A DNA stretch of 64,000 nucleotides from Arenicellales bacterium (GTDB lineage Bacteria; Pseudomonadota; Gammaproteobacteria; Arenicellales; JAHEKD01), in assembly GCA_965215945.1 (NCBI GenBank), contig CBDCFC010000046.1:175142-239141 (forward strand). Direction: 5' to 3'. Numbering within the stretch: the stretch's first letter is position 1; each line of letters begins with the position of its first letter. The notes beneath the pieces are model-generated. The model had not been told where the DNA came from. It was given only the letters and a program-made list of their open reading frames with translations, and ran no database searches. The position numbers were made by a program, and so were the translations under genes. This document shows, in pieces, positions 12,611 through 63,262 of the stretch.

Positions 12611-13318
12611 TTATGACCAATAAGCATATTTTGTTAACTTTTCCACGTTCGGAATAAAAATTGAGTCCCGTTTAATTTCCAGCAATTCTTCATCTTCGAG
12701 TTGTTTTAAGATGCGAGAGAAAGTTTCTGGTGTAACAGAAATAATAGAGGCGATAGTTTGTTTGGGGGTGTCAAGCCTAATCTTAGTCGACATCGCGTTG
12801 TGGTCTGGTATAAGTCCATTCAAATAATTGACTACTCTTATGGTCGCATTTTCCAGAGTTAAGCTGTCAATCTCCTTTACTTTTCTGTGCAATCGTTGGC
12901 TTAAGTCAGCAAGCAGTGCCATTGATAGTTCTGTTGATTCATGCAATAAATTGACGAATTGTTGATTATTAAAACCAATTACTTCACTTTTTTTCAATGC
13001 AACGCAGTTTGCGGGGTAGCGATTCTCGGTCAAAAACATGACAGCTTCGGCAAATAAATGACCAGGACGGACGATTTCCAGCACTTTTTCCATGCCATGG
13101 GCGGAATTTCGAGAAATTTTAACCTGGCCTTTTTTTAGCAGATAAAAGCTATGGGCGATATCACCCATATTAAACAGTGTTTGGTCTTTTGATAATTTTA
13201 TATGATGACTGTTATCTAGTAATTCTTTTCTTTGCTTGTTCTTTAGTGTGCTGAACACAGGTAATCTGGCTAATAGTGCTAACTCTTCAGTGTCAGTCAT
13301 TGGCTTGATATAAATCAA
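12611..13318 (-). CDS. dnr: Crp/Fnr-family regulator, Dnr/NnrR type (no N-terminal Cys cluster)
   Basis: cNMP-like beta-roll followed by an HTH with the FNR-type recognition helix ...SVTPETFSRILKQL (E--SR). No FNR Fe-S cysteines at the N-terminus. TTG start at 13318, alternative ATG at 13300. Confidence 0.85.
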   Translation of the reverse strand: MIYIKPMTDTEELALLARLPVFSTLKNKQRKELLDNSHHIKLSKDQTLFNMGDIAHSFYLLKKGQVKISRNSAHGMEKVLEIVRPGHLFAEAVMFLTENRYPANCVALKKSEVIGFNNQQFVNLLHESTELSMALLADLSQRLHRKVKEIDSLTLENATIRVVNYLNGLIPDHNAMSTKIRLDTPKQTIASIISVTPETFSRILKQLEDEELLEIKRDSIFIPNVEKLTKYAYWS

Positions 13319-14561: not shown

Positions 14562-15986
14562 ATGACCAGGCAACCATTGGTTGTATTATTTCCTGATTTA
14601 GACATCTTGAAAAATATTTTAGTGCGCATGATGCAGTCTGAACCCTACCAGTTAACCATCTCTACCCAGAACATGAGACGCACGACCACATCATGGTTAA
14701 TTCTTGGTTTGCTTTCACTTGTAGCGGCGGGTTTGTATTCAGTTTTACTGGTGCTAGCGCGAACGCCTGTTGTTCAACAATGGATACCGTTTGTGGATTT
14801 TTTTCACACTTCTCTGGTTGTCCACGTAAATCTATCCGTTTTTGTCTGGTTATTATCATTTTCTGCTGCCATGTGGAGTCTAAGTGCAAACACCGACTTT
14901 CCAAACTGGGATAAGACATCTTTTCTACTGTCGGCAGTCGGAACACTGGTAATTATTATTTCCCCTTTTGTAGGTGCAGGCCGGCCTTTATTAAATAACT
15001 ACATGCCCATATTACAACATTCGATTTTCTATTTTGGTTTGATTATTTTTGCCATCGGCATTACCAGTCATTTAATCCGCTCAATTTTCTCTGTCTCTTT
15101 GCCAGGGCAGGGATTGGATAGTGTTACTGTGTTGAAATTTGGTATTTCACTTTCGGCTGTTGTGACAGCAATCGCCATACTTTCATTTTTAGCATCATAT
15201 TTTGGTATTGATAAGAACATTCAGGGACAGGTGTTTTTCGAGTTTTTATTTTGGGGGTCGGGGCATGTGATTCAATTTAGTTATACCATTTTGATGCTGA
15301 TTTGCTGGGTTGTTCTGGCTAACACTAGTTTTTGCAGCTACACCTTGAGCCCAAGATTGACAATGTTGTTTCTGGTTTTGCTGGCGCTACCGGTCATCAC
15401 AGTCCCGTTTTTATATTTCGCACATGATATTGTTTCCCCCGGACACCGATTGGCATTTACTGAATTAATGAAGTACGGTGGTTTATCTTCTTTGCCGTTG
15501 GGGCTGGCAATCTTGGTCGCAATGATAAATGCTAAAGTGCCGCATGGTGAAGGTATTTATTTGCGCTCAGCGCTAAATATGTCAGTGTTGCTATTTGCCG
15601 TTGGTGGGATCTTGGGGTTTATGATCAGTGGTCTGGATATTGTCATACCCGCACATTATCATGGATCCACAGTCGCAGTAACTATTGCGTTTATGGGGCT
15701 TTCATATTATTTATTGCCCAGATTGGGATTTGCTGCACCAACAGCACGTCTGACTTTCTGGCAACCCTATATTTACGGCGTGGGTCAGTTAATCCATATC
15801 ACAGGTTTGGCAATTAGCGGTGGCTATGGTGTGCAAAGAAAAACGGCTGGTCTGGCTCAGGGTGTGGATCGCTTCGGTGAAATTGCTGGAATGGGCTTAA
15901 TGGGGACAGGGGGATTAATTTCTGTTATCGGTGGGATATTGTTTCTGATTATCACCTGTCAATCAATTTTAAGTAATCGGTCATGA
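14562..15986 (+). CDS. Orphan heme-copper oxidase-superfamily catalytic subunit (subunit I-like), divergent, candidate NO reductase
   Basis: About 12 TM helices. His in LVVHVNLSVF (helix II-like). FWGSGHVIQF aligns with W.GHP.VY. FAHDIVSPG aligns with ba3 FHHQFADPG. PAHYHGSTV aligns with GHFH. The true start may be internal (MMQSEP at 14628 or MRRTTT at 14673). Confidence 0.65.
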   Translation: MTRQPLVVLFPDLDILKNILVRMMQSEPYQLTISTQNMRRTTTSWLILGLLSLVAAGLYSVLLVLARTPVVQQWIPFVDFFHTSLVVHVNLSVFVWLLSFSAAMWSLSANTDFPNWDKTSFLLSAVGTLVIIISPFVGAGRPLLNNYMPILQHSIFYFGLIIFAIGITSHLIRSIFSVSLPGQGLDSVTVLKFGISLSAVVTAIAILSFLASYFGIDKNIQGQVFFEFLFWGSGHVIQFSYTILMLICWVVLANTSFCSYTLSPRLTMLFLVLLALPVITVPFLYFAHDIVSPGHRLAFTELMKYGGLSSLPLGLAILVAMINAKVPHGEGIYLRSALNMSVLLFAVGGILGFMISGLDIVIPAHYHGSTVAVTIAFMGLSYYLLPRLGFAAPTARLTFWQPYIYGVGQLIHITGLAISGGYGVQRKTAGLAQGVDRFGEIAGMGLMGTGGLISVIGGILFLIITCQSILSNRS

Positions 15987-16165
15987 TGGAAATTATCATA
16001 TTTACTCTAAACGGCATTTTTGTTTATCTGTTTTCAGATTGGATATTGAGATTGATTGAACGTTATCGCAATAAAAATTTTGAAAACAGATCGATCATTT
16101 TCTTTATGATATTTTTACCTTTGATCTTGCTGTCGTTTCAAGTCATTAATAAGTTCATTAAGTAA
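15983..16165 (+). CDS. Small two-helix membrane protein, translationally coupled to the HCO-like gene
   Basis: ATGA stop/start overlap with the upstream gene. 60 aa with two hydrophobic segments. No recognisable family. Confidence 0.4.
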   Translation: MMEIIIFTLNGIFVYLFSDWILRLIERYRNKNFENRSIIFFMIFLPLILLSFQVINKFIK

Positions 16166-16179
16166 ATTTCAATACTCTC

Positions 16180-16581
16180 TTAATGTGAATGCGGTAGATC
16201 TCTATGCAGTCGGGCATCAAACGTGGAGAAATGGTTTCGAAACCATTGACTCAAGCGTTCTTGCAGTATTACAGAGCCATTTTTTTGATCGTCTACAAAA
16301 TCATCCATGATGTTGAGAATTTGGTCTAACAGGTCCTCATGATCTTCTTTATGGGCCTCATATTCTACATATTGAGCTTTTTGCATAATTTGTTCCTCGT
16401 GGGCAAAATGAGCGGCAATTCCTGCATAAATATCACCTAAGAATTGTTCGATTTCTTCAGCCGGTGCATTTAATTCAAGCTTTTCGTAGGTCGCATTAAT
16501 CAAATCAATCATTTCACGATGCTCTTCATCAATTGAAGCGACTCCGACCGAATATTCGGGTTTCCATTCAATGTAAGTCAT
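16180..16581 (-). CDS. Hemerythrin-like (bacteriohemerythrin) protein
   Basis: IEWKPEYSVGV..IDEEHREMIDLIN, HFAHEE..M, H..DH and WF.NH....D iron-ligand pattern. ATG at 16581 lies after GAGGAA inside ORF 16180-16626. Confidence 0.85.
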   Translation of the reverse strand: MTYIEWKPEYSVGVASIDEEHREMIDLINATYEKLELNAPAEEIEQFLGDIYAGIAAHFAHEEQIMQKAQYVEYEAHKEDHEDLLDQILNIMDDFVDDQKNGSVILQERLSQWFRNHFSTFDARLHRDLPHSH

Positions 16582-16706
16582 AGCTGATTCCTCAATTAAC
16601 AATAAATTTATTTGTAATTTCATCAAATTCTATAAACACATGCTGGCCAGCAGAAAGCTTCAATTCAGCAGTATGTTTATAATCAAAATCCTCTTCTATT
16701 TTCGAA

Positions 16707-18603
16707 TCACGCATGCCGACAAAAAGCTGATGATTGCCTTGGGGGATTTTTAAATTGTTGATATACCGTTATCTCACCATCATCCCAAATGCCTGTTGGT
16801 GGCAGACTTTGTTGATACAAGATTTCATCGTTGAGCCTTAACATTACATCAACATTTTGTCTTTCACGCTGACAATCTTCAGCTTTGCGCATATTTGCAG
16901 GCAGTTGATCAAGCTCAGCCTGAGTCAACTTTCGGCATTCGTGTAATAATTGCCCGGCATGAGAAAAAGCTAACGAAACTACCGCTTGATGAGGGTCGCG
17001 TAGTTTAGTTTTTGGCCAGTTTGAAAAACGCGCAATTAAAGCTGTCAACAGAATACAGGTTGTAGCAATTGCCAGTAGTTTCATTGGTTTGTATGAATTC
17101 AGTGTGGCAATTGAATTTGTCTCAGTACCTTTGGCAGCAGGATGTAGGGTGCTAGCAAAGGCACTGAGTTGTTCACCGACGCTTCTATAACCCGACCAGG
17201 GGGCTTGCCAGCCCAGAGCTAGTCGATTCGGGTCAACTCGTTTACGTAAGTGTGGATCCCGCTTACGATCAATACGTTGCTCGGTCCACTGCGTTCCAAA
17301 CCGGTATTTACATTCATCCTGGCCACAGCCGGTCATTAAAATCCCGTCAGCGTAATTTCGGCTGAGAATATAATCAATAAAAGCAGGCGGTAGGTGTCCC
17401 ATGCAGGCGACTTGTAAAACGCCTTCATGATGAGATGATATTTTTTTGACTGAACTGTCTTTTTGGCAGGCAATAATCATTATCCGTTGCTCTGAAGTAA
17501 ATTCACTCGCCGCCTCATGGATCATGGTTCGAAGTTGTGCAGCACTTAACTCAGGTAAGTCTATTCCAGGAATCAACTCGCTGCGGGAGCGAAATGGCAT
17601 GGCAGTGGGACAGGCACCAACACAGATTCCACAACTGACACACAGATCAGCATCAACGACGGCCTCTTGTTCATGCACAGCGTCGTCACTGCGGGGCATC
17701 ATTGATATAGCACCGTATGGGCAATCGTTTGCGCAACGCTCACACCCATTACAGTTGTCAAGATCGACCAGAGCAGCTCGTTTTAGCTTGGCTGGTGGCA
17801 CCCAAGGTGCAAGGAACAGCAACATGGTCAAGCCGATCAATAATGCCCAAACTCCCGCAGGCGACCAGAACTGAATGAAAGGATAGATCAACAGATAAAA
17901 CCAGTCGAGACTGAGCGACTGTGGAACTTGTGTTAAATCAACCTTGTCCTGACTGAGGGCCGGGTAGAGCAAAGATAATATTACCAGCGCAGCTAATGTT
18001 GTGATCATCAATTGTCTTGGTGGATTAATCCGTGGCCCACTAATTCTGAATACATGCAGCCAGATGGCAAAAACAAAAAAGATGGGTAATCCGATTACGT
18101 GCAAAAAAACCATTAATGTGAAAAATCGGTCACTTAGATTTGAATCAGCTAAAAAGTTTCGGGCCATGGAGTTAGTAAAAATAGGCAGTGAATCCAACAG
18201 TTCGGCGGTCCGTAATGCTACATAGTGTGCTAACTCATCCCATACCAGCCAATAACCTGTAATACCTAAGATAAATAACAACCAGATTAAGGGAACACCG
18301 CATTACCCAGCTAAACCAGTGCTTACCCCGTTGATGGTCAATCGAGAACTCCCTGATGATATGCAGCGTTAGCAAAACGACCGCAGCATCTGAGGCATAG
18401 CGATGCAGACTGCGCATCACTGAGCCAAAGTACCATTGTTGATGAGTGATCAATTCGACTGATTGATAGGCGCCATCAACACTGGTGCGAAAAAAGATTA
18501 ATAACCAGATGCCGCTGATTAAAACAATCCAACAGAAAAATATGGTCAGTGCACCAAGATATTGAAAGGGATTCAGTTGATGATTAGTAGCCTGATTTAA
18601 CAA
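16707..18603 (-). pseudogene. Cytochrome b-like membrane domain + 2x[4Fe-4S] ferredoxin + MvhD/FlpD-like domain fusion, split by a +1 frameshift (orf1-like gene of the sNOR cluster)
   Basis: ORFs 18235-18603 and 16707-18281 overlap in different frames. The N-terminal part has RSLHRYASDAAVVLLTLHII (cyt b-like bis-His helix). Then LGITGYWLVWDEL, CNGCERCANDCP, CVSCGICVGACP, and ACQKDS...ACMGHLPPAFIDYIL...GCGQDECKY (MvhD-like). The break could also be a sequencing error. Confidence 0.7.
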
Positions 18604-18813
18604 CCAGCGAAGTGGAAAATAATACCAAGTTTGTGCAACGTTGCAGGGAAGTCAGCAAGATAGCCTGCATTTCTCACCAGGATGTGAAAAGAGATTGGGC
18701 CAAAAACCAAGCAGGACACAGTGCCATGCTTGGGTGTTTGTATATCCATTGGCAATGCTTTGCTTCATATTACTTTTTCTCATCTGTCTTGTCGGCCTGG
18801 TGAGAAATACGGG

Positions 18814-19675
18814 CTAACCTTGAGAAGATTTGAAGTGTTTTGATTCACGGTATAAGTAAATCCCTACTGAAACGACTACAAATAATCCAATCAAAATTTG
18901 AATGAATAGTGAATAATCGATTCGATAACGGCCTGTATTGGGATTATATACAGTGCAGAATATTTTTACTTTTGCGATAAAGTCAGCAATCAGATGGTGC
19001 TCTGATGCTGGCCGGTTAAAAACCAGTTCCTTTAACGGTTCAAACTAACCAGGGCAATTCAAAGATTTCACCGTAAACCTGTTGGTAAATGCTGCCTTGT
19101 TGGTCGACTATGCTTATCTGGGTGATGTGATCGAATCCACGCGGCGAAGGGAAATAACTGAAACCTAGCTCACGGGTCAAAGTGTTGAGTGCCGATTCTG
19201 TGCCGCTTAAAAAATTCCAATTTTCAAGATTTATATTTTGCTGGCGGGCAAATACATGCATATTCTCTGGTGTGTCTCTTTGCGTGTCAAAGCCGATGGT
19301 CACAACATTAAAACTGTCATCACCTAATGCGTCAAGCGCTGCTGTTACAGCTAATTTTAGTTGTTTGGTTGTTACCGGACAGGTTAAATGGCAGGAAGTG
19401 AATACCAGGCTAATCAATAATGGTTTGCCCTGGTAGTCACTCAGCTTGACGCTTTGTCCGTCTTGATTGATAAAGTTTAAATCACTTAACTTGTTACCAA
19501 TAGCTGCCTGGGACAAATCAAGTGCTATTTTCGAGTCATATTCTTTGCTTGTTTGTGCCGTCAGTTCAGTCGGATTCACTAAAAAGCAGCTCAACATAAT
19601 ACCTGTTCCAAACAAGATATCGTGGCTGCCGAACAACGCTGAGTCCGTTACTAAATAAACAACATAACAGCTCAA
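18814..19675 (-). pseudogene. senC: SCO1/SenC-family copper chaperone with a C-terminal membrane-anchored extension now out of frame
   Basis: FTSCHLTCP (CxxxC) plus downstream His, thioredoxin-like fold. The annotated stop is at 19040. The +1 frame continues stop-free as FEPLKELVFNRP...KIFCTVYNPNTGRYRIDYSLF plus a TM helix, ending at TAG 18814-18816, and has no start codon of its own. Confidence 0.6.
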
Positions 19676-19718
19676 AACCTCTGGGGTATTTCATTGATTG
19701 CTGGCAGTCGATAGTTGT

Positions 19719-21432
19719 CTATGACATAGGCCAGACCGAGGCTAAGTATTTCCAGTTGACGGAAAAATATATAACGAATATCACCAGAAAAAACATGGCC
19801 AGAACGAAGGTGCCAGGTGCTGCAAAACCCCATTTTCCGGCAGCCGCATGATCAGCCGCAGAAACAGTAAGCGGATCTGCTTTCATTAGGCGCGTCGTGG
19901 CAGTGCCGTAATCAGATTGTGAGTCAACAGGTTTGCCAAAAAATACCGATACGACGGTAATCAGTACAAAAATAGCTCCACCCAGGATCGCAATGACACC
20001 GCTTACCCCGACCAGCCCCATTAGTGTGAATGCCGTGGCGGAATAATCAAAGCCTAATAATGAATCATTAAATGCCATGTCCCAGTGACGTCGCTCAACG
20101 CCCAGAGTACCGGCACCCATCATGACCAGGGTGAAGACCGCCATACCGCCACCAAATAAATAAGGGTTGCCATTTGGCCAAGCCGGGCAAAAATACTTGT
20201 CGCCGAAACAATACCGGTATCAGAAAATAAGTCAGCGACATGAATGCCAGTGTGGTGCCAAGAACAACGGTGGCATGAAAGTGACCCGGAACATAAATTG
20301 TATTATGAATAATGATGTTGATCTGTTCGGTGCCCATCACCACACCGGATATTCCGCCAATAAATCCGAATCCCACCAAAGAAATAAACATTCCTGAAAA
20401 AACCGGATTACCCCAGGGAGCCTTGCGCAGCCATTCGAATAACCCACGTTTAAAGCCTTTGGCTCTTTGCGCGACTTCAATCGACCCGGGTACAGTCAGA
20501 CCATGGATCATGCTTGCCAGAACGGCGAGATACATGGCATAGCTGGTGTTAAATATCTTCCAGGTTGAGCTGATGCCTGGATCGACTAATACGTGGTGAG
20601 CCGAGGCCAGTTGCAAAAAGAAAATATAGAGCAAAAAAGCCATACGACTGACTTTTTCGGATAATGGTCGCGCCCCAAACACAATCGCAGCAATGGCGTA
20701 CCAGACTGCAACATGCGCAGCGACGTTAATCTGCTGCGATGAATGGCCAAAGCCCCACCAGACCAAGCGGTACATAACTGCGTCAATGTGCCCGATCAGG
20801 CCTAATGACCACAACCAAGTGGGAACTAATATGATAGCACCGGCTGAAATTGTAAAAATAGCGATAATACAAGCGGTTAAAGCACCAAAAGTAACCAGTG
20901 GAATTGATCCTTCGTAAGTGTTTTCTTCCTTAGCAACGACTAGTGTGCCGAGAAATATAAAACAACCGATCAGCGCACCAACGGCAAAAAGAATAAGCCC
21001 CAAATAAAAATTTGGGTTGGCCGGCATCGGCACATAAGAGGTCATCATCACCGATGAATCGCCACCTAATACCGCAAAGTTGTTAACCGCAGCTCCAATC
21101 ACCATTAAGGCAAACGCCAACCAACCTAGGCGGGGCGTTGCTAGGCGGCAGCGAAGGAGTGTCGAGCAGCAAAAGTACAAAACCGCAATTTCAAAAAATA
21201 TAATCCAGTACACCAGCATATTAATGCCGTGAATCGTCAATAGTTGGTAAAAGCGATCTGCCGGCAGTAGATGAATGGCAGGCCAGCGTGTTAACGTGAC
21301 CAGTAATGCGGTAATACCGCCAATCAATAGCATTACCACTGCCATCACTGCATTGGCGCGCATTAACATTTCCGCAGGTTTATGAAATTGCAGACCTGAT
21401 TCCGGACAAGTTCGAAATTGTTCCTGTGTCAT
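19719..21432 (-). pseudogene. norS: Heme-copper oxidase-superfamily subunit I, B-family-like / sNOR-type (norS-like), split by a +1 frameshift
   Basis: Aligns along its length with ba3-type subunit I: TIHGINMLVYW, WWGFGHSSQQ (no Tyr), SAHHVLVDPG, HNTIYVPGHFHATV. ORFs 20095-21432 and 19719-20144 overlap. The frame changes near 20152-20166 (WQP | YLFGGGMAVF). Confidence 0.8.
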
Positions 21433-21980
21433 TGCCCTGCCTCCGTTACGTAAATCTTACCCACCATATTATGATGACCGATACCACAAAACTCATTGCA
21501 AATAATAGTCTGATCAATGTCTGTATCTGGGGTAATAGTTAAAACCATTTCATAGCCTGGCACGATTTGTGTGTTGATATTGACCGGTTGTAAAGAAAAA
21601 CCATGCTGCCAGTCCATGGATGAAATATGAAGCCGGTAGGTCTGGTCTTTCTCCAGTTCAAGCAGCGGCCACCATGACCATAATCGGGCAACCAGATATA
21701 CATCGCTGCCTGGAGGGGGATGGACGACCGGAATATTTTGCTCCGTTTCAGTACGAACGGTATATTGATCTACCATCGCCTTTGCTTTATCCATAAAGGC
21801 GGCCGGTGTAGTGCGATAGGCTTCGTTGGAGAGATTTTGTTTGCCATAGACATGCCATAGTGGCATCATAATAAACATAATCAATGACCAGGCCAGGGCA
21901 ATAAGTATCCAGGTAAACTCAACCCTGTCCAACGGTTGTTTCCACCAGACGGTTTCCGATGGTGGTTGGATTGTACTCAT
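21429..21980 (-). CDS. norY: Heme-copper oxidase subunit II with CuA site (norY-like)
   Basis: N-terminal TM helix. Cupredoxin domain with DWQHGF and CNEFCGIGHHNM (C-x-E-x-C-G-x2-H-x2-M CuA motif). 4-nt overlap with the subunit I start. Confidence 0.85.
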   Translation of the reverse strand: MSTIQPPSETVWWKQPLDRVEFTWILIALAWSLIMFIMMPLWHVYGKQNLSNEAYRTTPAAFMDKAKAMVDQYTVRTETEQNIPVVHPPPGSDVYLVARLWSWWPLLELEKDQTYRLHISSMDWQHGFSLQPVNINTQIVPGYEMVLTITPDTDIDQTIICNEFCGIGHHNMVGKIYVTEAGQ

Positions 21981-22001
21981 GAGTCCGACTCCTTTAGATA
22001 A

Positions 22002-22163
22002 TTATTGACTGATGGGGATGGTGATAATTTCCATGATTCCCCATACAATATAAAAGACGGTCGGCATCACAATGCCAATGAATAACAGCAAAAACGGATT
22101 GTCCAGAATTTTTTGCATTACCGGAATTCGTTCTTTTGGTGTATCGTTATCTTCCTGACTCAT
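22002..22163 (-). CDS. Small single-helix membrane protein at the head of the norY-norS operon (below the ORF-track cutoff)
   Basis: Hand translation gives MSQEDNDTPKERIPVMQKILDNPFLLLFIGIVMPTVFYIVWGIMEIITIPISQ* (53 aa). It lies 21 nt upstream of the subunit II start, downstream of an FNR box. Confidence 0.45.
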   Translation of the reverse strand: MSQEDNDTPKERIPVMQKILDNPFLLLFIGIVMPTVFYIVWGIMEIITIPISQ

Positions 22164-22244: not shown

Positions 22245-22258
22245 TTGATGTACATCAA
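22245..22258. promoter_or_regulatory. FNR/Dnr box (perfect TTGAT-N4-ATCAA)
   Basis: TTGATGTACATCAA, centred about 88 bp upstream of the small ORF that heads the norY/norS operon. Identical 14-mer to the nirS box. Confidence 0.8.
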
Positions 22259-22275
22259 GCTCGATGTACTATTGG

Positions 22276-22289
22276 TTGATTTATATCAA
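22276..22289. promoter_or_regulatory. Second FNR/Dnr box in the divergent intergenic region
   Basis: TTGATTTATATCAA, perfect half-sites, 31 bp centre-to-centre from the first box. It faces the + strand DUF1566-ctaA-sco-hemN-nnrS genes. Confidence 0.7.
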
Positions 22290-31031: not shown

Positions 31032-32519
31032 TTAGTGACTGGTTCCCTCAGATAATGTGATTTTGTTGTAAATGTTGTATTTGCCGGACGGCTTTTTCAT
31101 CGGAATACGTTTTACTTCTTCCAGCGTCCGCATGTTATAAATCACCAATGCGCCGTCATCTTCCCAAATACTAACTAGTGCATGACAGCCATGTCGGTCA
31201 AATTCAATATGCGCACTGGTTTTGCCTGCCTCAGGAATTAATGTTTTGACAATGTCCAGTGTTTGTTTGTCTATTACTAAAATTTGCTCTTTTTGTTCGC
31301 CAAAAAATACATCAGCCATGGCATAGGCTGATTTTTCATGGCTGCGCATAAAAAATCCAGGACCAGGTGTTTTCAATTGTTTGATGATTTGCCAGTTGCT
31401 CATATCAATAAAAGAAATTTCATTTTTGCGTAAGTTCTGACTAGCCAGAACCCGAGTGTCGTTATAGTCGAAACTAAACCCAGAGCCCAGATGTGGTAAA
31501 CCTTCAAGCGCCACTTCGGCGATTGTTTGATGATTATCCAGATTGATAACCGCCGCTTTTCCACCTTCTCGAGTGCTACCGATAAGATATTGGTAATCTT
31601 GCGAAAAGAAGAAATCGTCAATAATGTTATCTGTCTCAATACGTGTCGGCTCCAGTATTGACGATTGTGCTGACTGATAGGTGATTTCCCACACCTGGGG
31701 AATATCTTTTAACGCCGCAATAAAGCTATCGCGAGGTGGGGCAGTATAAACCGCGCTGACACGCGAGGATTTTTCACCCGCTGTGACGTTAATTTCTGAT
31801 TTAAATGACAGATCGTCGGCATCGAGTGCAACAATACTATGTGGAAGGTAGTTGGCAACCAGAATTGTTTTGTTATCGGCTGACAGAGCAATATTGCGGG
31901 TGTTAATTCCAGCCCGAATTTCAAAAAGCGTCTTGAGATTGTAAATATCAAATTTGGAAATCCAGCCGTCGCGTGAAGCAAAATAAACATAACGTCCATC
32001 GGTTGAAAACTTTGGACCGCCATGCAGCGCCGGACGGGTTTTGAAACGATGAATTACTTTAAAAGCGTCACCATCAAGCAGGCTGGCACTGTGATCACCC
32101 AACTCAACAACGATGAACATGTTCAGTTTATCGGCAACAGGATAAATCGGCTCGGAAGATAAGTTGTCATGTTGATGGTCAACGTGACTGGCCTCGATTT
32201 GGGGTCTGGACCACACTGGCACTTGCGCTAAAGGTGTATAGATATATTCAACCAGCTCATCAATTTCAGCTTCAGAAAGTCTATCTGCAAACGCTGGCAT
32301 TTGGGTTAAAGGACGTCCGGCTGAAATGATTTCCTTAGCCGCTATTTTTTTTAAACGCTTGAGATTCTCGGGTAACAAGGCTGAGCCGAGCGCACCCAAT
32401 CTGTCACTTCCATGACAACTAGAGCAATGTTGCTGATATAAGGTCTTTATTGTTGAGTCTTCTGCGAAAGCAGGGTAGTTAAGTGCAATAAAAAGCAGAG
32501 CGGTGTTAAACCACTTCAT
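31032..32519 (-). CDS. nirN: Dihydro-heme d1 dehydrogenase NirN (cytochrome c + cd1 propeller)
   Basis: Signal peptide. CSSCHG heme c domain. cd1-type propeller paralogous to nirS. 495 aa. Confidence 0.8.
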   Translation of the reverse strand: MKWFNTALLFIALNYPAFAEDSTIKTLYQQHCSSCHGSDRLGALGSALLPENLKRLKKIAAKEIISAGRPLTQMPAFADRLSEAEIDELVEYIYTPLAQVPVWSRPQIEASHVDHQHDNLSSEPIYPVADKLNMFIVVELGDHSASLLDGDAFKVIHRFKTRPALHGGPKFSTDGRYVYFASRDGWISKFDIYNLKTLFEIRAGINTRNIALSADNKTILVANYLPHSIVALDADDLSFKSEINVTAGEKSSRVSAVYTAPPRDSFIAALKDIPQVWEITYQSAQSSILEPTRIETDNIIDDFFFSQDYQYLIGSTREGGKAAVINLDNHQTIAEVALEGLPHLGSGFSFDYNDTRVLASQNLRKNEISFIDMSNWQIIKQLKTPGPGFFMRSHEKSAYAMADVFFGEQKEQILVIDKQTLDIVKTLIPEAGKTSAHIEFDRHGCHALVSIWEDDGALVIYNMRTLEEVKRIPMKKPSGKYNIYNKITLSEGTSH

Positions 32520-34530
32520 AATTCAATAGCTTGTCAGGTAAGGCTTCTGAATTGAACCAGGACAAATCTTCAGCCAATCTGACAACATCACCAATAATGA
32601 TTAAAACCGGTGATTTCATCGCTTTGGTTTTGTCAGGCAGGCTTTGAATCGTTCCTTTAATAACCACTTGACTTTCAGTTGTTCCGTTGTAAATGGCTGC
32701 TGCCGGAGTGTTAACAGACAGGCCATGGCGAATGAGTTCAGAGGATAACTTCGGAAAACTGGACAGTGCCATAAAAAAGACAATAGTATGATTACAATTG
32801 GCCAAATAATTGAAATCTAAATCCAGTTTGTCCTCTTTGCAGTGACCGGTCACAAAAGTTACGCTCTGGGTGTAATCGCGATGGGTCAGGGGTATGCCGC
32901 TGTAAGCACCACAGCCATTCGCGGCACTAATGCCTGGAACAACTTCATGGGCGATGCCTGCTTTTACCAGAGCCTGTAATTCTTCCCCGCCACGCCCAAA
33001 TATGAACGGATCGCCACCTTTCAGCCTAACTACGGATTTATTGGTTTGCGCCAGTTTGATTAGCAATTGATTAATGCTGTCTTGAGCTAAACTGTGATTC
33101 GACATTTGTTTGCCAACATTGATCACCTCAGTGGTTTTGGGTATCAAATCAAGCACGCCTTTTGAAATAAGCCGGTCATGTACCACGACATCAGCGTTCT
33201 GGATAAGCGTTAATGCTTTAACTGTTAATAACCCGGGATCACCCGGGCCTGCACCGACTAAATAAACTTTGCCGTTTTTTGCTGTTTGAGTAGCCAACTT
33301 TAATTTTGCAGGTTTTTTCCTGGTTTTTTCGGGATCAAAACGAACTGTTTTGGGCATTAACCAGTTTTCCAGCGCCTTGGTAGGATTGTTTTTCAACTCA
33401 ATTTCATTATCGGTAAGATAACAACCCGGATCTTCACCCATAGGATCACCGCTAGAAACATAGGCTCTGACCCGGGTGTTACCATTACAGATCGAGCTAT
33501 ACGAACAATTCCCGCAACGTCCTTTCAATTCACGTGGTGATTGTCTGAATTTATGAATTAAAGGATCATCAGTTTGTTGCCAGATTTGTGAAAAAGGCTT
33601 GTCTTTTACATTGCCGATCGAATAATTCCACCAGAATGTGTCAGGATGTACATTGCCAATGTTGTCGATATTGGCGATAAACTTGCCGGTTGAGTTGCCG
33701 CCCCAAGCGACTAAACGCCGCTTAATTGTCTCAGCCTGCTCTGGAAATCGTTTTTTCACCCAATGATAAAAATACACGCCGTCGGCATCGTTATTACCGG
33801 TGACATATTCCCGATTGATGCCTGCTGTTAAGTCTTTGAGGCAATTTTCAAATAACAGATCAATAGCAGTACGGGTCATTTTATGGTGAGCGTCATCACG
33901 CCGGTTTGTTCTGCCCCGCCCTGAGTAATTCAGATGTGACAGATAAAACTTATCGACGTTGAATTCCCGCAGTGTATCGATAATATCTTCAAGATCGGCA
34001 AAGTTGTCTTTGGTAAGCGTAAAGCGTAAGCCGACTTTAATATCATTTTGACTGCATAAAGAAAGTCCGCGCATAGCATCATCAAAACCGCCTTGCCTAC
34101 GTCTAAAATAATCATGATTCTCACGATTGCCGTCTATGCTGATGCCGACATAGTTATAACCTGCGGCTTTAATTTGTTTAATATTATTTTCTGTGATCAA
34201 GGTGCCATTGCTGGAAAGTCCGACATACAAGTGTTTGCTTTTAGCATATTGTGTCAGTTCAAAAATATCATGTCGCAACAACGGTTCTCCACCGGATAAT
34301 ATTAAGGCCGGGACTGAATAGCCAGCTAAATCATCAATTACAGATTTAGCCTGCTCGGTCGTCAGTTCACCGGGAAAATCAATATCGGCGGAAGTAGAGT
34401 AGCAATGACGGCAGGTTAGATTACACCTTCGAATCAGATTCCAGATCACCACAGGCGCTTTGGGTGTGCGAATAGGGCGCATACTACCCGGTGATAGCAC
34501 CTCCTGCATCATTTGGCTGATTCTAAACAT
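32506..34530 (-). CDS. nirJ: Fusion of radical-SAM NirJ and SAM-dependent uroporphyrinogen-III C-methyltransferase (NirE/CobA)
   Basis: N-terminus has CNLTCRHCY radical-SAM motif, GGEPLL, and SPASM-like CGNCSYSSICNG. After a Lys-rich linker the C-terminus has VYLVGAGPGDPGLLTVKAL..ADVVVHD, VVRLKGGDPFIFGRGGEE (SUMT). Confidence 0.85.
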   Translation of the reverse strand: MFRISQMMQEVLSPGSMRPIRTPKAPVVIWNLIRRCNLTCRHCYSTSADIDFPGELTTEQAKSVIDDLAGYSVPALILSGGEPLLRHDIFELTQYAKSKHLYVGLSSNGTLITENNIKQIKAAGYNYVGISIDGNRENHDYFRRRQGGFDDAMRGLSLCSQNDIKVGLRFTLTKDNFADLEDIIDTLREFNVDKFYLSHLNYSGRGRTNRRDDAHHKMTRTAIDLLFENCLKDLTAGINREYVTGNNDADGVYFYHWVKKRFPEQAETIKRRLVAWGGNSTGKFIANIDNIGNVHPDTFWWNYSIGNVKDKPFSQIWQQTDDPLIHKFRQSPRELKGRCGNCSYSSICNGNTRVRAYVSSGDPMGEDPGCYLTDNEIELKNNPTKALENWLMPKTVRFDPEKTRKKPAKLKLATQTAKNGKVYLVGAGPGDPGLLTVKALTLIQNADVVVHDRLISKGVLDLIPKTTEVINVGKQMSNHSLAQDSINQLLIKLAQTNKSVVRLKGGDPFIFGRGGEELQALVKAGIAHEVVPGISAANGCGAYSGIPLTHRDYTQSVTFVTGHCKEDKLDLDFNYLANCNHTIVFFMALSSFPKLSSELIRHGLSVNTPAAAIYNGTTESQVVIKGTIQSLPDKTKAMKSPVLIIIGDVVRLAEDLSWFNSEALPDKLLNYEVV

Positions 34531-34684: not shown

Positions 34685-35314
34685 TTATAGGCAAACCCAA
34701 ATTTGATTGTTATCAACTTTGTACTCAATGCGAGTAAGTGGTTGATCACCTTTTTCAATACACTCACCGTTTGTAATATCAAACTTCCAGTCATGTTTAG
34801 GGCAGGTTAGTACCTTGTCATTCAATGATTCATCGGTAATTGCAGTTGCCTGGTGCGGACAGTGTTGATCAAAAACAATAATTGATGCTTCCTTGTTCAT
34901 GTGAACAAAAATTCCACGATTAGCGATTTCACGATATAGGGTTTCATTTGGCTTTAATTCGTCAATATCCATAACTTTATGCCAAGTTGTTTCATTAACC
35001 AGATTTTCAGGCCTGAATTCTGGTAAATCCATTTCGATTACTATTTCTATGGCCCAGACAATTTTGGTCAGCCCAAGCGTTGGAAAAGCAACCATCATGG
35101 CATCAATTATTTCGTTAGCGGAAACCCCGATGTCTAATGCTCTTTTTAAATATTGTTTGAAGCCTTTTTCAGTCTGATTATCGACTTTTGTAATGACAGA
35201 GATTATTGCCTTTGTTCTATCATCAAGTGAGCCACTAGATTTCTTAATGAAACTAAAATAAGCTTGCATTGCATCCGGCCGGACTTTCAATAAATAATTC
35301 AGTGCTTCGCTCAT
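34685..35314 (-). CDS. Fusion of a carboxymuconolactone-decarboxylase (AhpD-like) domain and a Rieske [2Fe-2S] domain
   Basis: N-terminus has the CMD-family pattern (LDDRTKAIISV...ALDIGVSANEIIDAMMVA). C-terminus has HCPHQ ... TCPKHDWKFD (C-x-H ... C-x2-H Rieske ligands), NirD-small-subunit-like size. Confidence 0.7.
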   Translation of the reverse strand: MSEALNYLLKVRPDAMQAYFSFIKKSSGSLDDRTKAIISVITKVDNQTEKGFKQYLKRALDIGVSANEIIDAMMVAFPTLGLTKIVWAIEIVIEMDLPEFRPENLVNETTWHKVMDIDELKPNETLYREIANRGIFVHMNKEASIIVFDQHCPHQATAITDESLNDKVLTCPKHDWKFDITNGECIEKGDQPLTRIEYKVDNNQIWVCL

Positions 35315-37241: not shown

Positions 37242-37255
37242 TTGATGTACATCAA
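37242..37255. promoter_or_regulatory. FNR/Dnr box upstream of nirS
   Basis: Perfect TTGATGTACATCAA centred about 73 bp upstream of the nirS ATG. Confidence 0.85.
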
Positions 37256-47615: not shown

Positions 47616-50600
47616 ATGGCTTTGCCATCTTATATTGGCCGTTATTCGGTTAGAGAAGAAATTGCAAGGGGTGGCTTTGCACACGTTGTTCAGGCTTTTG
47701 ATGAAGAGCTTGAATCATACGTCGCTATCAAAATTCTTTTGCCAGAAATGGCAAAAAATCAGGAACTACTAAACCGGTTTTTGGAAGAAGCGCGTTTGTT
47801 GCGTCGCATACGCTGTTCAAATGTCATCACGGTGCATGATGTTGGCCGGCTAGGCAATGGGTGCCCCTATTTCGTGATGGATTATGCCGACCGGGGGACA
47901 TTAGTTCCACGTCTGAAAAAATACTCCAGCAAAAGTGATTTACACAATGTTTCTATTCTTGTCGATGCGATCAGCAATGGTTTGGCTGCATTACATGAAT
48001 CTGGAATTGTGCACCGGGATATCAAACCGGCAAACATTCTGTTTCAGCTAGCCCGGCGCCAACCGGTTGCCAGCAATCAGACTGACGATTTAAACACCAG
48101 AAGCCTGGTAAAGCCTGATGAGCGTGTATTAATCGGTGACCTGGGCATTGCAAAAGATATGTTACGTCATTCAGGACTAACCACCGTAATGGCAGGCACC
48201 CCTCTGTACCAGGCTCCGGAACAGTTGGATCCTAAAGCGATGGTGGAAACAACAGCGGATATTTACGCTGCCAGTGCCATGCTATGGCATATTCTTACTG
48301 GTAATAACCCGCCCCAGCCTTATCAGGTTGAACAGTCTCTCGAAAACTTACCAGTGATGTGGCACGATGTGCTCAGCCAGGGAATGGCAATCGATCCGCA
48401 CAGTAGGTTTGACAGTATTGACGAGTGGCGTGTGGCTATTCATCGAGTTTTGTCCGGTCAGGACTTGGCGGGTGATTCAGGCTCTGTGACTGCAAGCGTG
48501 ACGCAGTCTGCTCAGTGTCCATACAAGGGGTTGGCAGCATATCAGCCCGAAGACGCTCAGTTTTTCTTTGGACGGGACGATTTGATTGATGAGTTAGTGC
48601 GTCGAATTCAGTCGAACTCCGTGCTAATTGTTTCGGGTTCATCCGGTAGCGGCAAATCATCACTGGTGCGAGCCGGTTTGATTCCGGCTTTGCAAGCAGG
48701 CTCGATCACAGGCAGTGGCAAATGGCGATTAGGGCTTTTTACACCGGGGCGCGATCCAATGGCTGAACTTTATTTGCAGTTAAAAAGCCTGGCCCCGGAA
48801 ATGTCCACCCCAATCTCACTCGATGATCTGCTCTTACATCCTGCTATGGCACGCCATCTAAGCTGGTCAGAGGGCAGCGGCGAAGATGCACCTCTGGTCC
48901 TGTTTATTGATCAGTTTGAAGAATTGTTTACACTTGCCCCTGAGTCACAAATTGAACCTTTTATTGAAGCACTGTCAGCCATGACTGATCCTGTGCATAG
49001 CAAGGTGCGGGTGGTGATTACTGTGCGAGCAGATTTTTATGGTGCCTGCTCAAAAATTCCCTGGCTAGCTGAGCGAATTACCCAGAATCAGGTGCTGGTG
49101 GGGCCGATGACTGCGGCTGAACTACGTCGTGCGATAAGTGGACCGGCACAGCAAAGTAAACTCTATCTGGAAAGTGAGCTGGTCGATACGATTGTCGAAG
49201 AAGCTGGCAGCGAGACCGGCACATTGCCGCTGGTGGCACATGCTTTGCTAGAAACCTGGACTCGCCGCCGTGGCAATACGCTGACACTTGAGGCCTATAA
49301 ACAAGCGGGCGGGATGATCGGGGCCATCAGCCAGACGGCTGATTCGATATATGAGCAAAGTTTCGATGAGCAGCAAAGACAAGTAACTCGACGCCTTTTC
49401 CTGCGTTTAGTGACTCCAGGTGATGGCACACCGGATACCCGCCGGATACTAGATCAGTCCGATATTGATAAAGACGAAAACCCACAAGTTACCCGAAAAG
49501 TTATCGAAACCCTGGTTAATGCAAGACTGTTGACACTGGATGATACTTCGGTGCAGATTGCTCACGAAGCAATACTGAGAAACTGGCCCAGGCTGAATCA
49601 GTGGATTGATCAATCACGCGATGATCTGCGCACCAGACAGCGAATTTCCTATGCAGCACAGCAATGGGATGGTGAACAAAGAAATGTTGATCTGTTATAT
49701 AGAGGAACACAATTGCTTGCCGCGCTTGAATGGGCTGATCAAAACCCGGATCAACTCGGCCTGCTGGAGCAGGAATTCTTGAATGCCTCCGAGAAGGTGA
49801 AAATTGAAACTGAGGCCATCGCAGCAGAGCAAGAAAACAAAGCACGCCGAAACAGACAAATAGCGGTAACACTGCTTTCGATTCTCGCTATCGGTGCGAC
49901 GGTCGCCTCGCTGATTGCTTTTCTTGGTTTTAAGCAAGCCCGCCATAATGAACAGCGAGCGGAATTTGCCACTATCGAAGCCCACGAGCGGTTTGCAGGT
50001 GCATTAGGGTCTGCAGCACATGGCCTGGTCTCAGATGATCCGCTGCTAGCACTGGTTTTAGGTGCTGAGGCCATCCAGCGTGCAGAAATTAACCCTCCTG
50101 ATTTTCAAGCCAGGGCGACATTGGTTCAGGCTCGGCATGAACTGGCTCGAAGCTTTCTGCATCCGGTTGGCAGCCCAATCGAAGCAGGGGATGCCATTGC
50201 TGTTGCCTTGAGTCCTGATGGAAGCTTGTTGGCCTCCGGGCGAAGGGATGGCAGTATCGGTCTGATTGACGTGGCAAGTGGCCAGCAAAAGCAAAATCTT
50301 ACCGGTCACCAAGGCGGAGTTCGAGATTTGGATTTCACCAAAGACGGCAACAGGCTGGTGTCAATAGGCACTGACGGTACCATCAGATTATGGCAGCTAA
50401 AAGATGGCTTAAGTGTTGATGACAGTATTATCGGCAAGACAGGCGATGTCATCATGGGATTGGGTCTTAATTTACAAGGTACACATGCCGCGACGGCTAA
50501 CGGTGATGGCAAGCTGCAACTCTGGGACTTATCTCAACAGAGCGGTGATGGAGAAATACTTCTGCAAGATACGCTGGAGTTCAACGCAGTAACATTTAGC

Positions 50601-52028
50601 CCCGATGGTCAAGGTTTAGTTACAGGGTACAGTGATGGAACGATGTATGGCCTGAATCTGGTTACTCAGGAACCATTGTTTGATCCGATCAAAAATGCAC
50701 ATGGCAGTAATTATCGTTTCATTATTATGAGTCCGAACGGCAAGCGCTTTGCCACGGTGAGCGTAGACAGTACTTCTAAATTATTCGACTATCCAAGCGG
50801 TAAACTTGATAGCCAACTGTTTGACAGCGTCAAGCACATTGGTGCAGTTGCGTTTACTTCAGATGACCGATATTTGATCGGTGGTACTGGCGATGGCAGT
50901 CTAAAAATATGGGATTTAGTTGAAAGGAAAGTTGTTGCATCAACAACCGCCGGACACGATCAATCGATTGTTGATATGCAAACCGACCGAAATAATATTC
51001 TACTGGCTACTTTAGGACGTGAACAACTGATTAGAATGTGGCGTGCCAACTATCAATATCCTGTGGCGGCCAGTTACGCTGTTGAAGGAAAAGCCAGGGG
51101 TGTCGCTTTCAGTGCTGATGGAAAATGGCTGGCCATCGGTGCCGACTCCGGGATAGTAAAGATTTGGAACATCCAATCCGGTGAGCAATCTCAAACAATA
51201 ACAGGACATAATCAACAAGTTTGGGCGTTGGCATTTTCGCCGGATAGTCGTTTTCTGGCCTCAGCAGACCGATCCGGGCAATTAAACGTATGGGATATTG
51301 AAAGCGGGGAGGTCCAATGGAGTGTCAATTCTGATGATATACCGATTTGGTCTGTTGCATTTATCAATGATGGCAAGCAACTGGTCACAGCCAGTGATCA
51401 GCGTATCAAAATTCGGGAGAATGCAACGGGTGAATTGATAAATAATATATCAAACGGTGATACTTTGACTAGAATGACCGTGTTCCCAGATGGCCATCGT
51501 ATTGCTGTGTCCACTTCAAATGGTCAAGCCAAAATCTGGGATATAGAAAAAGGGGAAATAATCAACACATTTACGGTAGATGATAACTTGATTTGGAGTG
51601 TTGCTATTTCACCCGATGGCCTTCAGTTGGCAACAGCTTCCAGCGATGAAGTCGTTGTTTTGTGGAGTGTCGAATCCGGTGAGCAACTGGCAGTACTCAC
51701 AGGGCACACTGGCGGTGCAACCGATTCGGCTTATCTGGCTGATGGTGTCACGCTTGTTGTGACGGATCGCAGCGGTAAACTGCATTTCTGGGACACCATA
51801 ACCCGACGTCGACTAGACAAGCCCATTTCAGCTCATAGCGGCGCGAGCTGGCGCGTTGCCTTGCACCCGGATGGATTCCGGTTTGCCACCAGTGGAGAAG
51901 ATGGTCTAGCCAGGGCTTGGGATGAATTAAGCATTGAAAAAGCTTGCGAAATAGGCCTCCCTGGATTTGATGCCAAACGTCGTGAACAATACATTGGCAT
52001 TAATGAGAAATCTGTAGCCTGTGACTAG
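47616..52028 (+). CDS. Ser/Thr protein kinase - STAND-type P-loop NTPase - single TM helix - about 14 WD40 repeats (1470 aa)
   Basis: Kinase: HRDIKPANILF, DLGIAKD, GTPLYQAPEQ. NTPase: FFGRD.., VSGSSGSGKSSLV (Walker A), LVLFIDQFEELF (Walker B). TM: IAVTLLSILAIGATVASLIAFLGF (nt 49861-49932). Then repeated GH....V..LAFSPDG..LA(T/S)...D..(I/V)..W(D/N) units. Confidence 0.9.
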   Translation: MALPSYIGRYSVREEIARGGFAHVVQAFDEELESYVAIKILLPEMAKNQELLNRFLEEARLLRRIRCSNVITVHDVGRLGNGCPYFVMDYADRGTLVPRLKKYSSKSDLHNVSILVDAISNGLAALHESGIVHRDIKPANILFQLARRQPVASNQTDDLNTRSLVKPDERVLIGDLGIAKDMLRHSGLTTVMAGTPLYQAPEQLDPKAMVETTADIYAASAMLWHILTGNNPPQPYQVEQSLENLPVMWHDVLSQGMAIDPHSRFDSIDEWRVAIHRVLSGQDLAGDSGSVTASVTQSAQCPYKGLAAYQPEDAQFFFGRDDLIDELVRRIQSNSVLIVSGSSGSGKSSLVRAGLIPALQAGSITGSGKWRLGLFTPGRDPMAELYLQLKSLAPEMSTPISLDDLLLHPAMARHLSWSEGSGEDAPLVLFIDQFEELFTLAPESQIEPFIEALSAMTDPVHSKVRVVITVRADFYGACSKIPWLAERITQNQVLVGPMTAAELRRAISGPAQQSKLYLESELVDTIVEEAGSETGTLPLVAHALLETWTRRRGNTLTLEAYKQAGGMIGAISQTADSIYEQSFDEQQRQVTRRLFLRLVTPGDGTPDTRRILDQSDIDKDENPQVTRKVIETLVNARLLTLDDTSVQIAHEAILRNWPRLNQWIDQSRDDLRTRQRISYAAQQWDGEQRNVDLLYRGTQLLAALEWADQNPDQLGLLEQEFLNASEKVKIETEAIAAEQENKARRNRQIAVTLLSILAIGATVASLIAFLGFKQARHNEQRAEFATIEAHERFAGALGSAAHGLVSDDPLLALVLGAEAIQRAEINPPDFQARATLVQARHELARSFLHPVGSPIEAGDAIAVALSPDGSLLASGRRDGSIGLIDVASGQQKQNLTGHQGGVRDLDFTKDGNRLVSIGTDGTIRLWQLKDGLSVDDSIIGKTGDVIMGLGLNLQGTHAATANGDGKLQLWDLSQQSGDGEILLQDTLEFNAVTFSPDGQGLVTGYSDGTMYGLNLVTQEPLFDPIKNAHGSNYRFIIMSPNGKRFATVSVDSTSKLFDYPSGKLDSQLFDSVKHIGAVAFTSDDRYLIGGTGDGSLKIWDLVERKVVASTTAGHDQSIVDMQTDRNNILLATLGREQLIRMWRANYQYPVAASYAVEGKARGVAFSADGKWLAIGADSGIVKIWNIQSGEQSQTITGHNQQVWALAFSPDSRFLASADRSGQLNVWDIESGEVQWSVNSDDIPIWSVAFINDGKQLVTASDQRIKIRENATGELINNISNGDTLTRMTVFPDGHRIAVSTSNGQAKIWDIEKGEIINTFTVDDNLIWSVAISPDGLQLATASSDEVVVLWSVESGEQLAVLTGHTGGATDSAYLADGVTLVVTDRSGKLHFWDTITRRRLDKPISAHSGASWRVALHPDGFRFATSGEDGLARAWDELSIEKACEIGLPGFDAKRREQYIGINEKSVACD

Positions 52029-55374: not shown

Positions 55375-56379
55375 ATGGCTAGAACACTGAGTTTTAAAGA
55401 CGCGATAAATGAGGCCCTGGACCAGGAAATGGCCCGCGATGAAAGCGTTATTGTGATGGGCGAAGATGTTGTCGGTGGCACAGGTAGCCCGGGTGAAGAA
55501 GATGCCTGGGGCGGTGTATTAGGCGTGACCAAGGGGCTGTATGCAAAGCACGGAGAGCGCATGATGGATACGCCATTGAGTGAATCCGCCTATGTGGGTG
55601 CCGCAATCGGTGCAGCGACCTGCGGCATGCGTCCGGTGGCCGAATTAATGTTTGTTGATTTTTTTGGGGTCTGTATGGATCAGATTTACAATCAGGCGGC
55701 GAAGTTTCGCTATATGTTCGGCGGCAAGGCTGAAACGCCTGTTGTTATCCGTTGTATGGTGGGCGCCGGTTTTCGGGCAGCCGCACATCATTCGCAGATG
55801 TTAACGTCGATTTTTACCCACATTCCGGGACTGAAAGTCGTACTTCCATCCAATGCCTATGACGCCAAAGGCCTGCTGATTCAATCCATCCGTGATAACG
55901 ACCCGGTGATCTTTTGTGAACATAAAATGCTTTACGGTACCGAGGCGGATGTACCGGAAGAGGCGTATGCGATTCCCTTTGGCGAGGCCGACATACCCCG
56001 TGAAGGCAGTGATATCACAATCGTTTCGCTGGGCGCTATGGTCGGAAAATCCCTTGAGGCAGCCGAAGAGCTTGCCAAAGATGGAATCTCCTGTGAAGTG
56101 ATAGATTTGCGAACAACTTCGCCCATGGATGAAGACACGATTTATGAGAGCGTCGAAAAAACGGGACGACTGGTTGTGGTGGATGAATCCCACCCCCGTT
56201 GTAGTATTGCCTCCGATGTTTCATCACTGGTGGCCCAAAACTGCTTTGGCAATTTGAAAGGTAAAATTCAAATGGTGACCGCGCCGCATGTGCCGCCGCC
56301 ATTCGCTGCCAATCTGGAGGATCTGTACATTCCGGATACCGGGGATATCAATCAGGCGGTCAGAGCCGTTGCTGCTTGA
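55375..56379 (+). CDS. acoB: Acetoin:acceptor oxidoreductase E1 beta subunit
   Basis: Transketolase-like pyrimidine-binding and C-terminal domains (DTPLSE....GAAIGAA..G.RPV.E.MF.DF). 334 aa. Confidence 0.9.
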   Translation: MARTLSFKDAINEALDQEMARDESVIVMGEDVVGGTGSPGEEDAWGGVLGVTKGLYAKHGERMMDTPLSESAYVGAAIGAATCGMRPVAELMFVDFFGVCMDQIYNQAAKFRYMFGGKAETPVVIRCMVGAGFRAAAHHSQMLTSIFTHIPGLKVVLPSNAYDAKGLLIQSIRDNDPVIFCEHKMLYGTEADVPEEAYAIPFGEADIPREGSDITIVSLGAMVGKSLEAAEELAKDGISCEVIDLRTTSPMDEDTIYESVEKTGRLVVVDESHPRCSIASDVSSLVAQNCFGNLKGKIQMVTAPHVPPPFAANLEDLYIPDTGDINQAVRAVAA

Positions 56380-56408
56380 GTGACAACTTTCGTCCTGGCA
56401 AAGAAAAA

Positions 56409-59317: not shown

Positions 59318-59344
59318 TGAAAGCAGACTTGGACTGCATTACAG

Positions 59345-60751: not shown

Positions 60752-60825
60752 TGTTGTTATTGAACATATTTTCATGAATAATCGTCAAGATTTAGTCTCG
60801 CCAGACACCGTAGTTACAAAATTCT

Positions 60826-62985: not shown

Positions 62986-63030
62986 ATCTCTGATTGAAAT
63001 TGAGTGACAAATTCTGGGCAAAAACACAGA

Positions 63031-63260: not shown

Positions 63261-63262
63261 TT

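Follow-up and report, generated by a model that had tools for sequence, protein, structure and literature searches.

The closest described relatives of the operon considered here are the sNOR enzymes of ammonia oxidisers and the family that Murali et al. defined as sNOR in 2024. The sNOR operon order is given in the literature as norS-norY-senC (PMC3772326, PMC6967387), norS being subunit II and norY subunit I (PMC6967387). An absent cross-linked tyrosine serves as a criterion for new nitric oxide (NO) reductase families derived from B-type oxidases (PMC11214002). NO reductase activity of the sNOR family is only predicted (PMC11214002), and it has been disputed (PMC6967387). The stretch analysed here, termed the window, comprises 64,000 nt of an Arenicellales bacterium (GenBank assembly GCA_965215945.1, contig CBDCFC010000046.1, forward-strand positions 175,142 to 239,141), and all coordinates refer to its own numbering. 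On its minus strand, a cluster at 22163-16180 holds, in order, a 53-amino-acid (aa) open reading frame (ORF), subunit II, subunit I, SenC, a cytochrome b-FeS-MvhD gene and a hemerythrin gene. As judged from its sequence, this locus is a complete sNOR-type operon. In the deposited form its frame is broken five times, each time by a single additional T on the coding (minus) strand. On balance we lean, slightly, towards reading these five T's as local consensus errors in the deposited sequence.

The identity of the enzyme is supported by its metal ligands as well as by gene order. Subunit I (norY-like, 19719-21432) belongs to the heme-copper superfamily (Pfam COX1, 2e-59), and in alignment with the Thermus thermophilus ba3 oxidase the equivalents of H72, H233, H282, H283, H384 and H386 are all kept. 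The cross-linked tyrosine is without counterpart, as GHPIVY of ba3 corresponds to GHSSQQ and Tyr237 to Gln. Subunit II (norS-like, 21429-21980) is an intact cupredoxin of 183 aa with a complete set of CuA ligands, H...CxxxCxxxHxxM, when aligned to T. thermophilus ba3 subunit II. An earlier, sequence-only reading of this DNA had proposed an sNOR-type gene order; the order is borne out, but the labels norY and norS had been swapped relative to the literature (PMC6967387). The cluster opens with an intact membrane ORF of 53 aa (22002-22163) preceded by a strong Shine-Dalgarno sequence (AGGAG), whose orthologues in the four nearest relatives (L081-L084) are also 53 aa long and 90-92% identical. 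It closes with its last conserved gene, encoding an intact hemerythrin-domain protein (16180-16581). Most likely the operon encodes, as in its relatives, a copper-dependent NO (or low-oxygen) reductase with an electron-input module of its own.

Upstream of the operon lie two perfect FNR/DNR-type boxes, TTGATGTACATCAA at 22245-58 and TTGATTTATATCAA at 22276-89, and the former recurs unchanged ahead of nirS (37242-55). These perfect boxes, one of them shared with nirS, assign the operon to the denitrification regulon. Boxes of the form TTGAT-N4-ATCAA with at most one mismatch number 14 in the window against 5.9 expected. Perfect copies are located at 13305-13318, 22245-22289, 34703-34716 and 37242-37255, and one FNR/DNR-type box overlaps the start of a Crp-family regulator gene.

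The frame lesions were placed by codon-level alignment to the orthologous loci L081-L084, L013, L002 and L007. A T is the most parsimonious identity of each extra base and needs no accompanying substitution. Three frame switches, all +1, had been reported earlier for subunit I, SenC and the cytochrome b gene; all three exist where they had been placed, but the total is five, those at 18616-18619 and 16752-16754 having been missed. The first lesion, at 20162-20163 in subunit I, reads CCC[T]TAT (the extra base bracketed) and falls between WQP and YLFGGG. The second, at 19042-19044 in SenC, reads GTT[T]GAA and separates PWLV from EPLKELVF. The remaining three are in the cytochrome b gene. The newly found third lesion, at 18616-18619, turns the TTT of L081 into a run of TTTT between LVLF and PLRWLLNQ; the fourth, at 18302, is A[T]GC inside a Ser codon and outside any homopolymer; and the fifth, also new, at 16752-16754, reads CAA[T]TTA between YQQ and LKIPQGNHQ. 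All five lie on the minus strand, like the genes that they break. The true start of the cytochrome b gene is TTG at 18658-56, just past the SenC stop codon, as in L081, L082 and L083, and the third lesion lies 13 codons into the gene. Its N-terminus reads M-L-T-S-L-Q-R-C-T-N-L-V-L-F and then, after the +1 shift, P-L-R-W-L-L-N-Q. A TGA at 18654-52, previously listed as a possible nonsense codon, is out of frame once this lesion is recognised.

Deletion of the five T's yields ORFs of 570, 286 and 687 aa with zero stops. Wherever a related locus is of sufficient length, L013 and L081-L084 included, its orthologues are intact and the repaired proteins align with them collinearly. Subunit I, split in the deposit into ORFs of 445 and 141 aa, regains its 570 aa after removal of a single T and is then 94% identical to the intact protein P0002 of L081. 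The SenC/Sco copper chaperone (18814-19675), which carries a C-terminal membrane-helix extension, ends at 19040 (UGA) in its deposited form and reaches 286 aa upon repair. The gene for the fusion of cytochrome b, 2x[4Fe-4S] and an MvhD/FlpD-like part with a C-terminal membrane domain (16592-18658) carries three lesions, the last of which moves its final ~50 codons into the ORF 16592-16714. Its repaired product of 687 aa equals the Elongatibacter orthologue in length. Junction peptides to be expected from the repaired frames include AKWQPYLFGGGMAVF, ELPWLVEPLKELVF, LVLFPLR, HWFSWVSGVPLIW and VYQQLKIPQGNH.

Orthologous operons are uninterrupted elsewhere. Elongatibacter sediminis CH-27 (L013) has the identical arrangement in unbroken genes of 54, 183, 570, 282, 687 and 138 aa, and so do L081-L084, taken from European Nucleotide Archive (ENA) and Logan assemblies, again with unbroken genes. 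Subunit I is in one frame in all 88 of 88 related loci, and the order subunit II, subunit I, senC is found in ~70 related loci. SenC followed by the cytochrome b-FeS gene is seen downstream wherever the contig suffices among the 88 loci, with the exception of one Thioploca metagenome-assembled genome (MAG). Moreover, all genes common to L081 and the window between 12.6 and 27.3 kb are collinear. The fused 687-aa protein is one of two natural architectures. In L006, L008, L010-L012 and many others, the last ~190 residues of cytochrome b-FeS-MvhD form a separate adjacent gene in another frame. Matches in two frames within the relatives' cytochrome b-FeS gene were rejected as lesions, since they reflect two neighbouring genes that are naturally separate.

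A public protein collection contains the broken products letter for letter, with lengths of 445, 141, 524 and 185 aa, all from one contig of 248,935 nt; the 185-aa entry (P0131) is the truncated SenC. The lesions thus belong to the deposit and were not introduced downstream. Same-species copies were sought in the protein database with the 445-aa ORF and the repaired SenC, and only the broken ORFs of the source contig were returned; beyond these, the next relative reaches an identity of 96% in protein and ~81% in nucleotides. No same-species sequence was detected in JGI metagenomes, by an exact-pattern scan and a protein-guided scan, or in short-read Logan assemblies. Across the protein database, Logan and the JGI collections, the species is known from one deposit only. 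The closest species-representative genome, L001 (JAHEKD010000269.1; SPAdes, coverage ~1.9), has a 3' contig end that aligns exactly to window position 20163, the subunit I lesion, which is probably a coincidence.

The distribution of the lesions is far from even. Five of the six frame lesions in the 64 kb fall within 3.4 kb, a stretch that is flanked by 2 kb of clean operon and by clean neighbours. The probability of finding at least five of six in the 5.6-kb operon is P = 2.8e-5, or ~3e-4 when corrected for the choice of window, and the clustering is beyond chance. The sixth lesion, a 1-nt deletion in a G-run (57381-86), affects acoC (56376-57553, plus strand; lipoyl and alpha/beta-hydrolase domains); addition of one G restores a 392-aa protein with VIWGREDKIIP. 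That acoC is the sole other frame disruption had been noted before and agrees with our scan, in which Pfam searches of ~50 further window ORFs found full-length domain coverage and no other split gene. The flanking nir genes are intact, as had also been stated, and so are ctaA and nnrS. The runs in which the operon lesions fall were originally 0-3 nt long. The 11 operon runs of at least 6 nt are untouched, and none of the 271 runs of at least 5 nt in other intact genes is affected.

Assembly error, which had been mentioned earlier only as a caveat, becomes the leading explanation. The extra T's would be errors of sequencing, assembly or polishing that affect only a poorly supported part of a contig derived from a metagenome, and the real operon would be intact and functional. 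All five lesions are +T on one strand, which suggests a biased technical process. Gene-fragmenting indel consensus errors are known both in long-read assemblies and in low-coverage MAGs (PMC9262707). Consensus error accounts for the indel-only pattern, for the uniform +T, for the preserved coding information and promoter, and for the confinement to a few kilobases, which is the scale of read lengths. We infer this technical cause from direct observations, namely the nature of the lesions, the intact orthologues and the lack of any other sign of decay.

Several points weigh against consensus error. Homopolymer-driven miscalls should strike long homopolymers, but these are spared, with none of the 11 operon runs of at least 6 nt affected. 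The local error excess would be 85-fold and would have to have some special cause, for instance a fall in coverage or a strain bubble. Finally, an inverted-repeat insertion at 18661-18816 is undoubtedly a real, lineage-specific change in the same operon, so real mutation has touched the locus.

This insertion of 153-156 nt has terminal inverted repeats of 19-21 nt (TAGCCYGYATTTCTCACCAGG), with TA flanking both ends. Its place is precisely between the stop codon of SenC and the start codon of cytochrome b, which are adjacent at the empty site of L081 (TAG GC TTG), and it is absent from all 94 related loci examined, L081 included. The element, TAGCCYGYATTTCTCACCAGG...CCTGGTGAGAAATRCRGGCTA, folds into a long hairpin and is non-coding; it occurs as a single copy in the 64 kb, and its target-site duplication is ambiguous, being either TA or ~6 nt, AGGYTA. 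It looks like an insertion of the miniature inverted-repeat transposable element (MITE) type. In contrast to the single-base lesions, it cannot be put down to base calling. It shares with MITEs, e.g. those derived from IS630/Tc1-mariner that target TA, a size of ~150 nt, terminal inverted repeats, lack of coding capacity, TA flanks and an empty orthologous site. It departs from them in having a single visible copy in the 64 kb and an ambiguous target-site duplication, and no parent transposase was identified.

From the clustering, the sequence-only reading had concluded that selection on the operon was relaxed. The clustering is indeed non-random (P ~3e-4), but no loosening of constraint shows in the repaired genes. 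The repaired subunit I shows no deviation at 305 residues that are invariant in 117 homologues. Deviations at otherwise invariant columns are likewise zero in subunit II and SenC, and there are three in cytochrome b-FeS, which is about the median of its relatives. In Tajima relative-rate tests with three outgroups, the window lineage is not accelerated against its closest relative L081; against more distant relatives, 2 of ~48 tests reach a nominal, uncorrected P<0.05. The dN/dS ratio (nonsynonymous to synonymous substitution rates), which had been put forward as a check for decay, gives no sign of relaxation: against L081 it is 0.01-0.18 in every segment with estimable dS, including all those downstream of shifts, although dS is saturated at this distance and the ratio speaks to the long term only. 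The repaired genes contain no stop codons and no deletions. Taken together, the rate, invariant-residue and dN/dS signals of decay show nothing beyond what multiple testing would be expected to give.

For the recent past, random substitutions were simulated in the 5.1 kb, with a stop codon or a change at an invariant subunit I residue as readout. Fifteen substitutions leave a 5% chance of no trace and 40 leave less than 0.1%; by this simulation, neutral substitutions in the 5.1 kb amount to at most ~15. Long-standing decay under relaxed selection could explain several lesions in one operon, but it is highly improbable: the lineage is not accelerated against its closest relative, invariant residues carry no excess of change, dN/dS is well below 1 in all measurable segments, stops and deletions are lacking, and 40 or more neutral substitutions are excluded by the simulation at P<0.001. 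Since decay has left no trace and neutral substitutions number at most ~15, the lesions are either non-biological or extremely recent.

A genuine and very recent inactivation is accordingly a possible, though doubtful, account. The operon would be dispensable, or its loss favoured, and the five T insertions together with the MITE-like insertion would be too recent for substitutions to have followed. The clustering in a single transcription unit is what a loss of selection at the operon level predicts, every gene downstream of the first lesion is broken, and the operon does contain a real insertion element. Furthermore, a second gene of the window, acoC, is also frameshifted, and, in contrast to classic sequencing miscalls, the lesions stay clear of long homopolymers. 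The operon also runs head-on to the replication direction inferred from GC skew, and head-on orientation is reported to raise mutagenesis. In a variant of this account, the lesions might stem from one localised error-prone event.

The mutational spectrum speaks against such an inactivation. In mutation-accumulation data from gammaproteobacteria, indels amount to ~1/5 of substitutions, deletions outnumber insertions 2-3 times, and the single-nucleotide share of indels is only 20-36%; in lines deficient in repair, long homopolymers are where single-base indels gather (PMC5854121). By these spectra, five single-base insertions should be accompanied by many tens of substitutions as well as several deletions, and the 11 long runs should be favoured. 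What is found instead is five insertions with zero deletions or nonsense codons and at most ~15 neutral substitutions, which contradicts the bacterial spectra (PMC5854121). Indels of the slippage type should prefer the 11 long runs of the operon, all of which are untouched. The same base on the same strand in all five cases needs an unusual process that is insertion-only and T-specific, and the promoter boxes have remained perfect. Ordinary neutral decay is a poor description of the operon.

A further explanation holds that the lesions are real and that products are still made, either through five +1 recoding events or as split or truncated polypeptides; this is very unlikely. The split products might be, for example, helices I-X of subunit I, made apart from a polypeptide that restarts at the conserved Met of position 20144, or SenC without its C-terminal helix. 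In its favour, all five sites need the same +1 correction, the frames downstream of them are perfectly conserved, and all six His ligands lie within the first subunit I ORF. Some sites also qualify formally, if loosely, as slippery, namely UUU-U at 18619-16, CCC-U at 20163 and GUU-UGA at 19044-40, the last resembling CUU-UGA of prfB. The lesion sites are, however, absent from every orthologue, and site 18302 (GUA-AUG-CGG) offers no re-pairing. At the five sites no shared motif, no methylation-type context and no Shine-Dalgarno stimulator was seen, and inspection of the 15 nt that precede each of them found no GGAGG-like element. No other +1 site occurs in 51 kb of window coding sequence, which argues against a genome-wide tolerance. 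Split products would further require that cytochrome b be cut between helices B and C and again near its N-terminus, and we know of no precedent for such splitting. In a related and scarcely credible form, the five T's would be genuine and corrected at expression, by ribosomal +1 frameshifts or by removal of U from the transcript. Correction of this kind would explain the +T-only events, the preserved frames and the confinement to one transcription unit; U-deletion editing is not known to occur in bacteria. Compared with the programmed +1 frameshift of prfB (RF2), the likeness is that a +1 shift is needed and that the second site, GUU-UGA-A, consists of a shift-prone codon followed by a stop. 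The prfB site, in contrast, is shared throughout bacteria and is preceded by a Shine-Dalgarno stimulator, whereas the present sites occur in one genome, are heterogeneous and lack a stimulator.

Taken at face value, the deposit describes a nirS nitrite reducer whose heme-copper NO reductase has only just been lost, which would alter NO and nitrous oxide (N2O) predictions for a little-known gammaproteobacterial lineage of sediment or soil. This loss cannot be called from the deposit alone; the operon is otherwise fully constrained, and a technical cause matches the pattern of lesions better than a normal mutational spectrum does. The practical value lies in a caution for pathway inference from single MAGs and in five exact positions. 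If real, the lesions would capture a very recent loss, brought about by an unusual mutational pattern of +T only.

The surroundings of the operon contain several further features. Convergent to it on the plus strand, 14562-16165 encodes a very divergent COX1-like protein of 474 aa together with a 60-aa membrane partner; both are intact and, in most relatives, syntenic with the sNOR-type operon. The COX1-like protein scores just 51 bits with Pfam COX1 and found no match in a PDB sequence search. It has six invariant His; in place of the customary neighbouring HH pair stands H-x6-H (His288/His295), and a subunit II is lacking nearby. In the nir heme d1 cluster, 32506-34530 (minus strand) encodes a 674-aa fusion of a radical-SAM (NirJ-like) protein and a tetrapyrrole methylase. 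The ORF at 47616-52028 (plus strand) had been considered as GltB, which was rejected; it encodes a 1470-aa nSTAND-type protein with WD40 repeats and a Ser/Thr kinase, lies in a patch of G+C 0.50 against ~0.43, and its nearest relatives, from diverse phyla, are only ~60% identical. The region 58699-63910 is likely a defence and mobile island, with an MNT/HepT toxin-antitoxin pair, a 468-aa protein without Pfam match, a TOTE-system AEP primase-helicase (PF22548) and a phage-type integrase. An Rfam scan of the window returned nothing.

Set against known systems, the frame lesions resemble two of them. Like indel consensus errors (PMC9262707), they are patchy single-base indels without substitutions, and one-base edits restore the ORFs; typical consensus errors, in contrast, lie in long homopolymers and include deletions, whereas here five T's were added in runs of 0-3 nt. 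Like frameshift pseudogenes under relaxed selection, they comprise several frameshifts in one dispensable unit whose orthologues in relatives are intact; unlike such pseudogenes, the operon has no substitutions at constrained sites, no nonsense codons and no deletions, and its promoter is intact. The frame lesions are either an artefact or a fresh pseudogenisation, both of which are known kinds.

With the sNOR of ammonia oxidisers, and with the family described by Murali et al. in 2024 (PMC11214002; PMC6967387; PMC3772326), the operon itself shares the order of subunit II, subunit I and SenC, a B-family-related subunit I with all His ligands and no cross-linked tyrosine, the CuA ligands retained in subunit II, and a locus tied to NO and low-oxygen physiology. 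Unlike the ammonia-oxidiser system, it resides in a nirS denitrifier-type gammaproteobacterium, with relatives in Woeseiaceae, 'Lysobacterales' MAGs and Elongatibacter. It has in addition a 53-aa leader gene, the cytochrome b-FeS-MvhD fusion, a hemerythrin gene and an adjacent divergent COX1-like gene. The copy in the window carries five frame lesions, and its sNOR assignment is made by ligands and gene order. The operon is not new, but a further member of a widespread sNOR-type family in Woeseiaceae-like and other proteobacterial MAGs.

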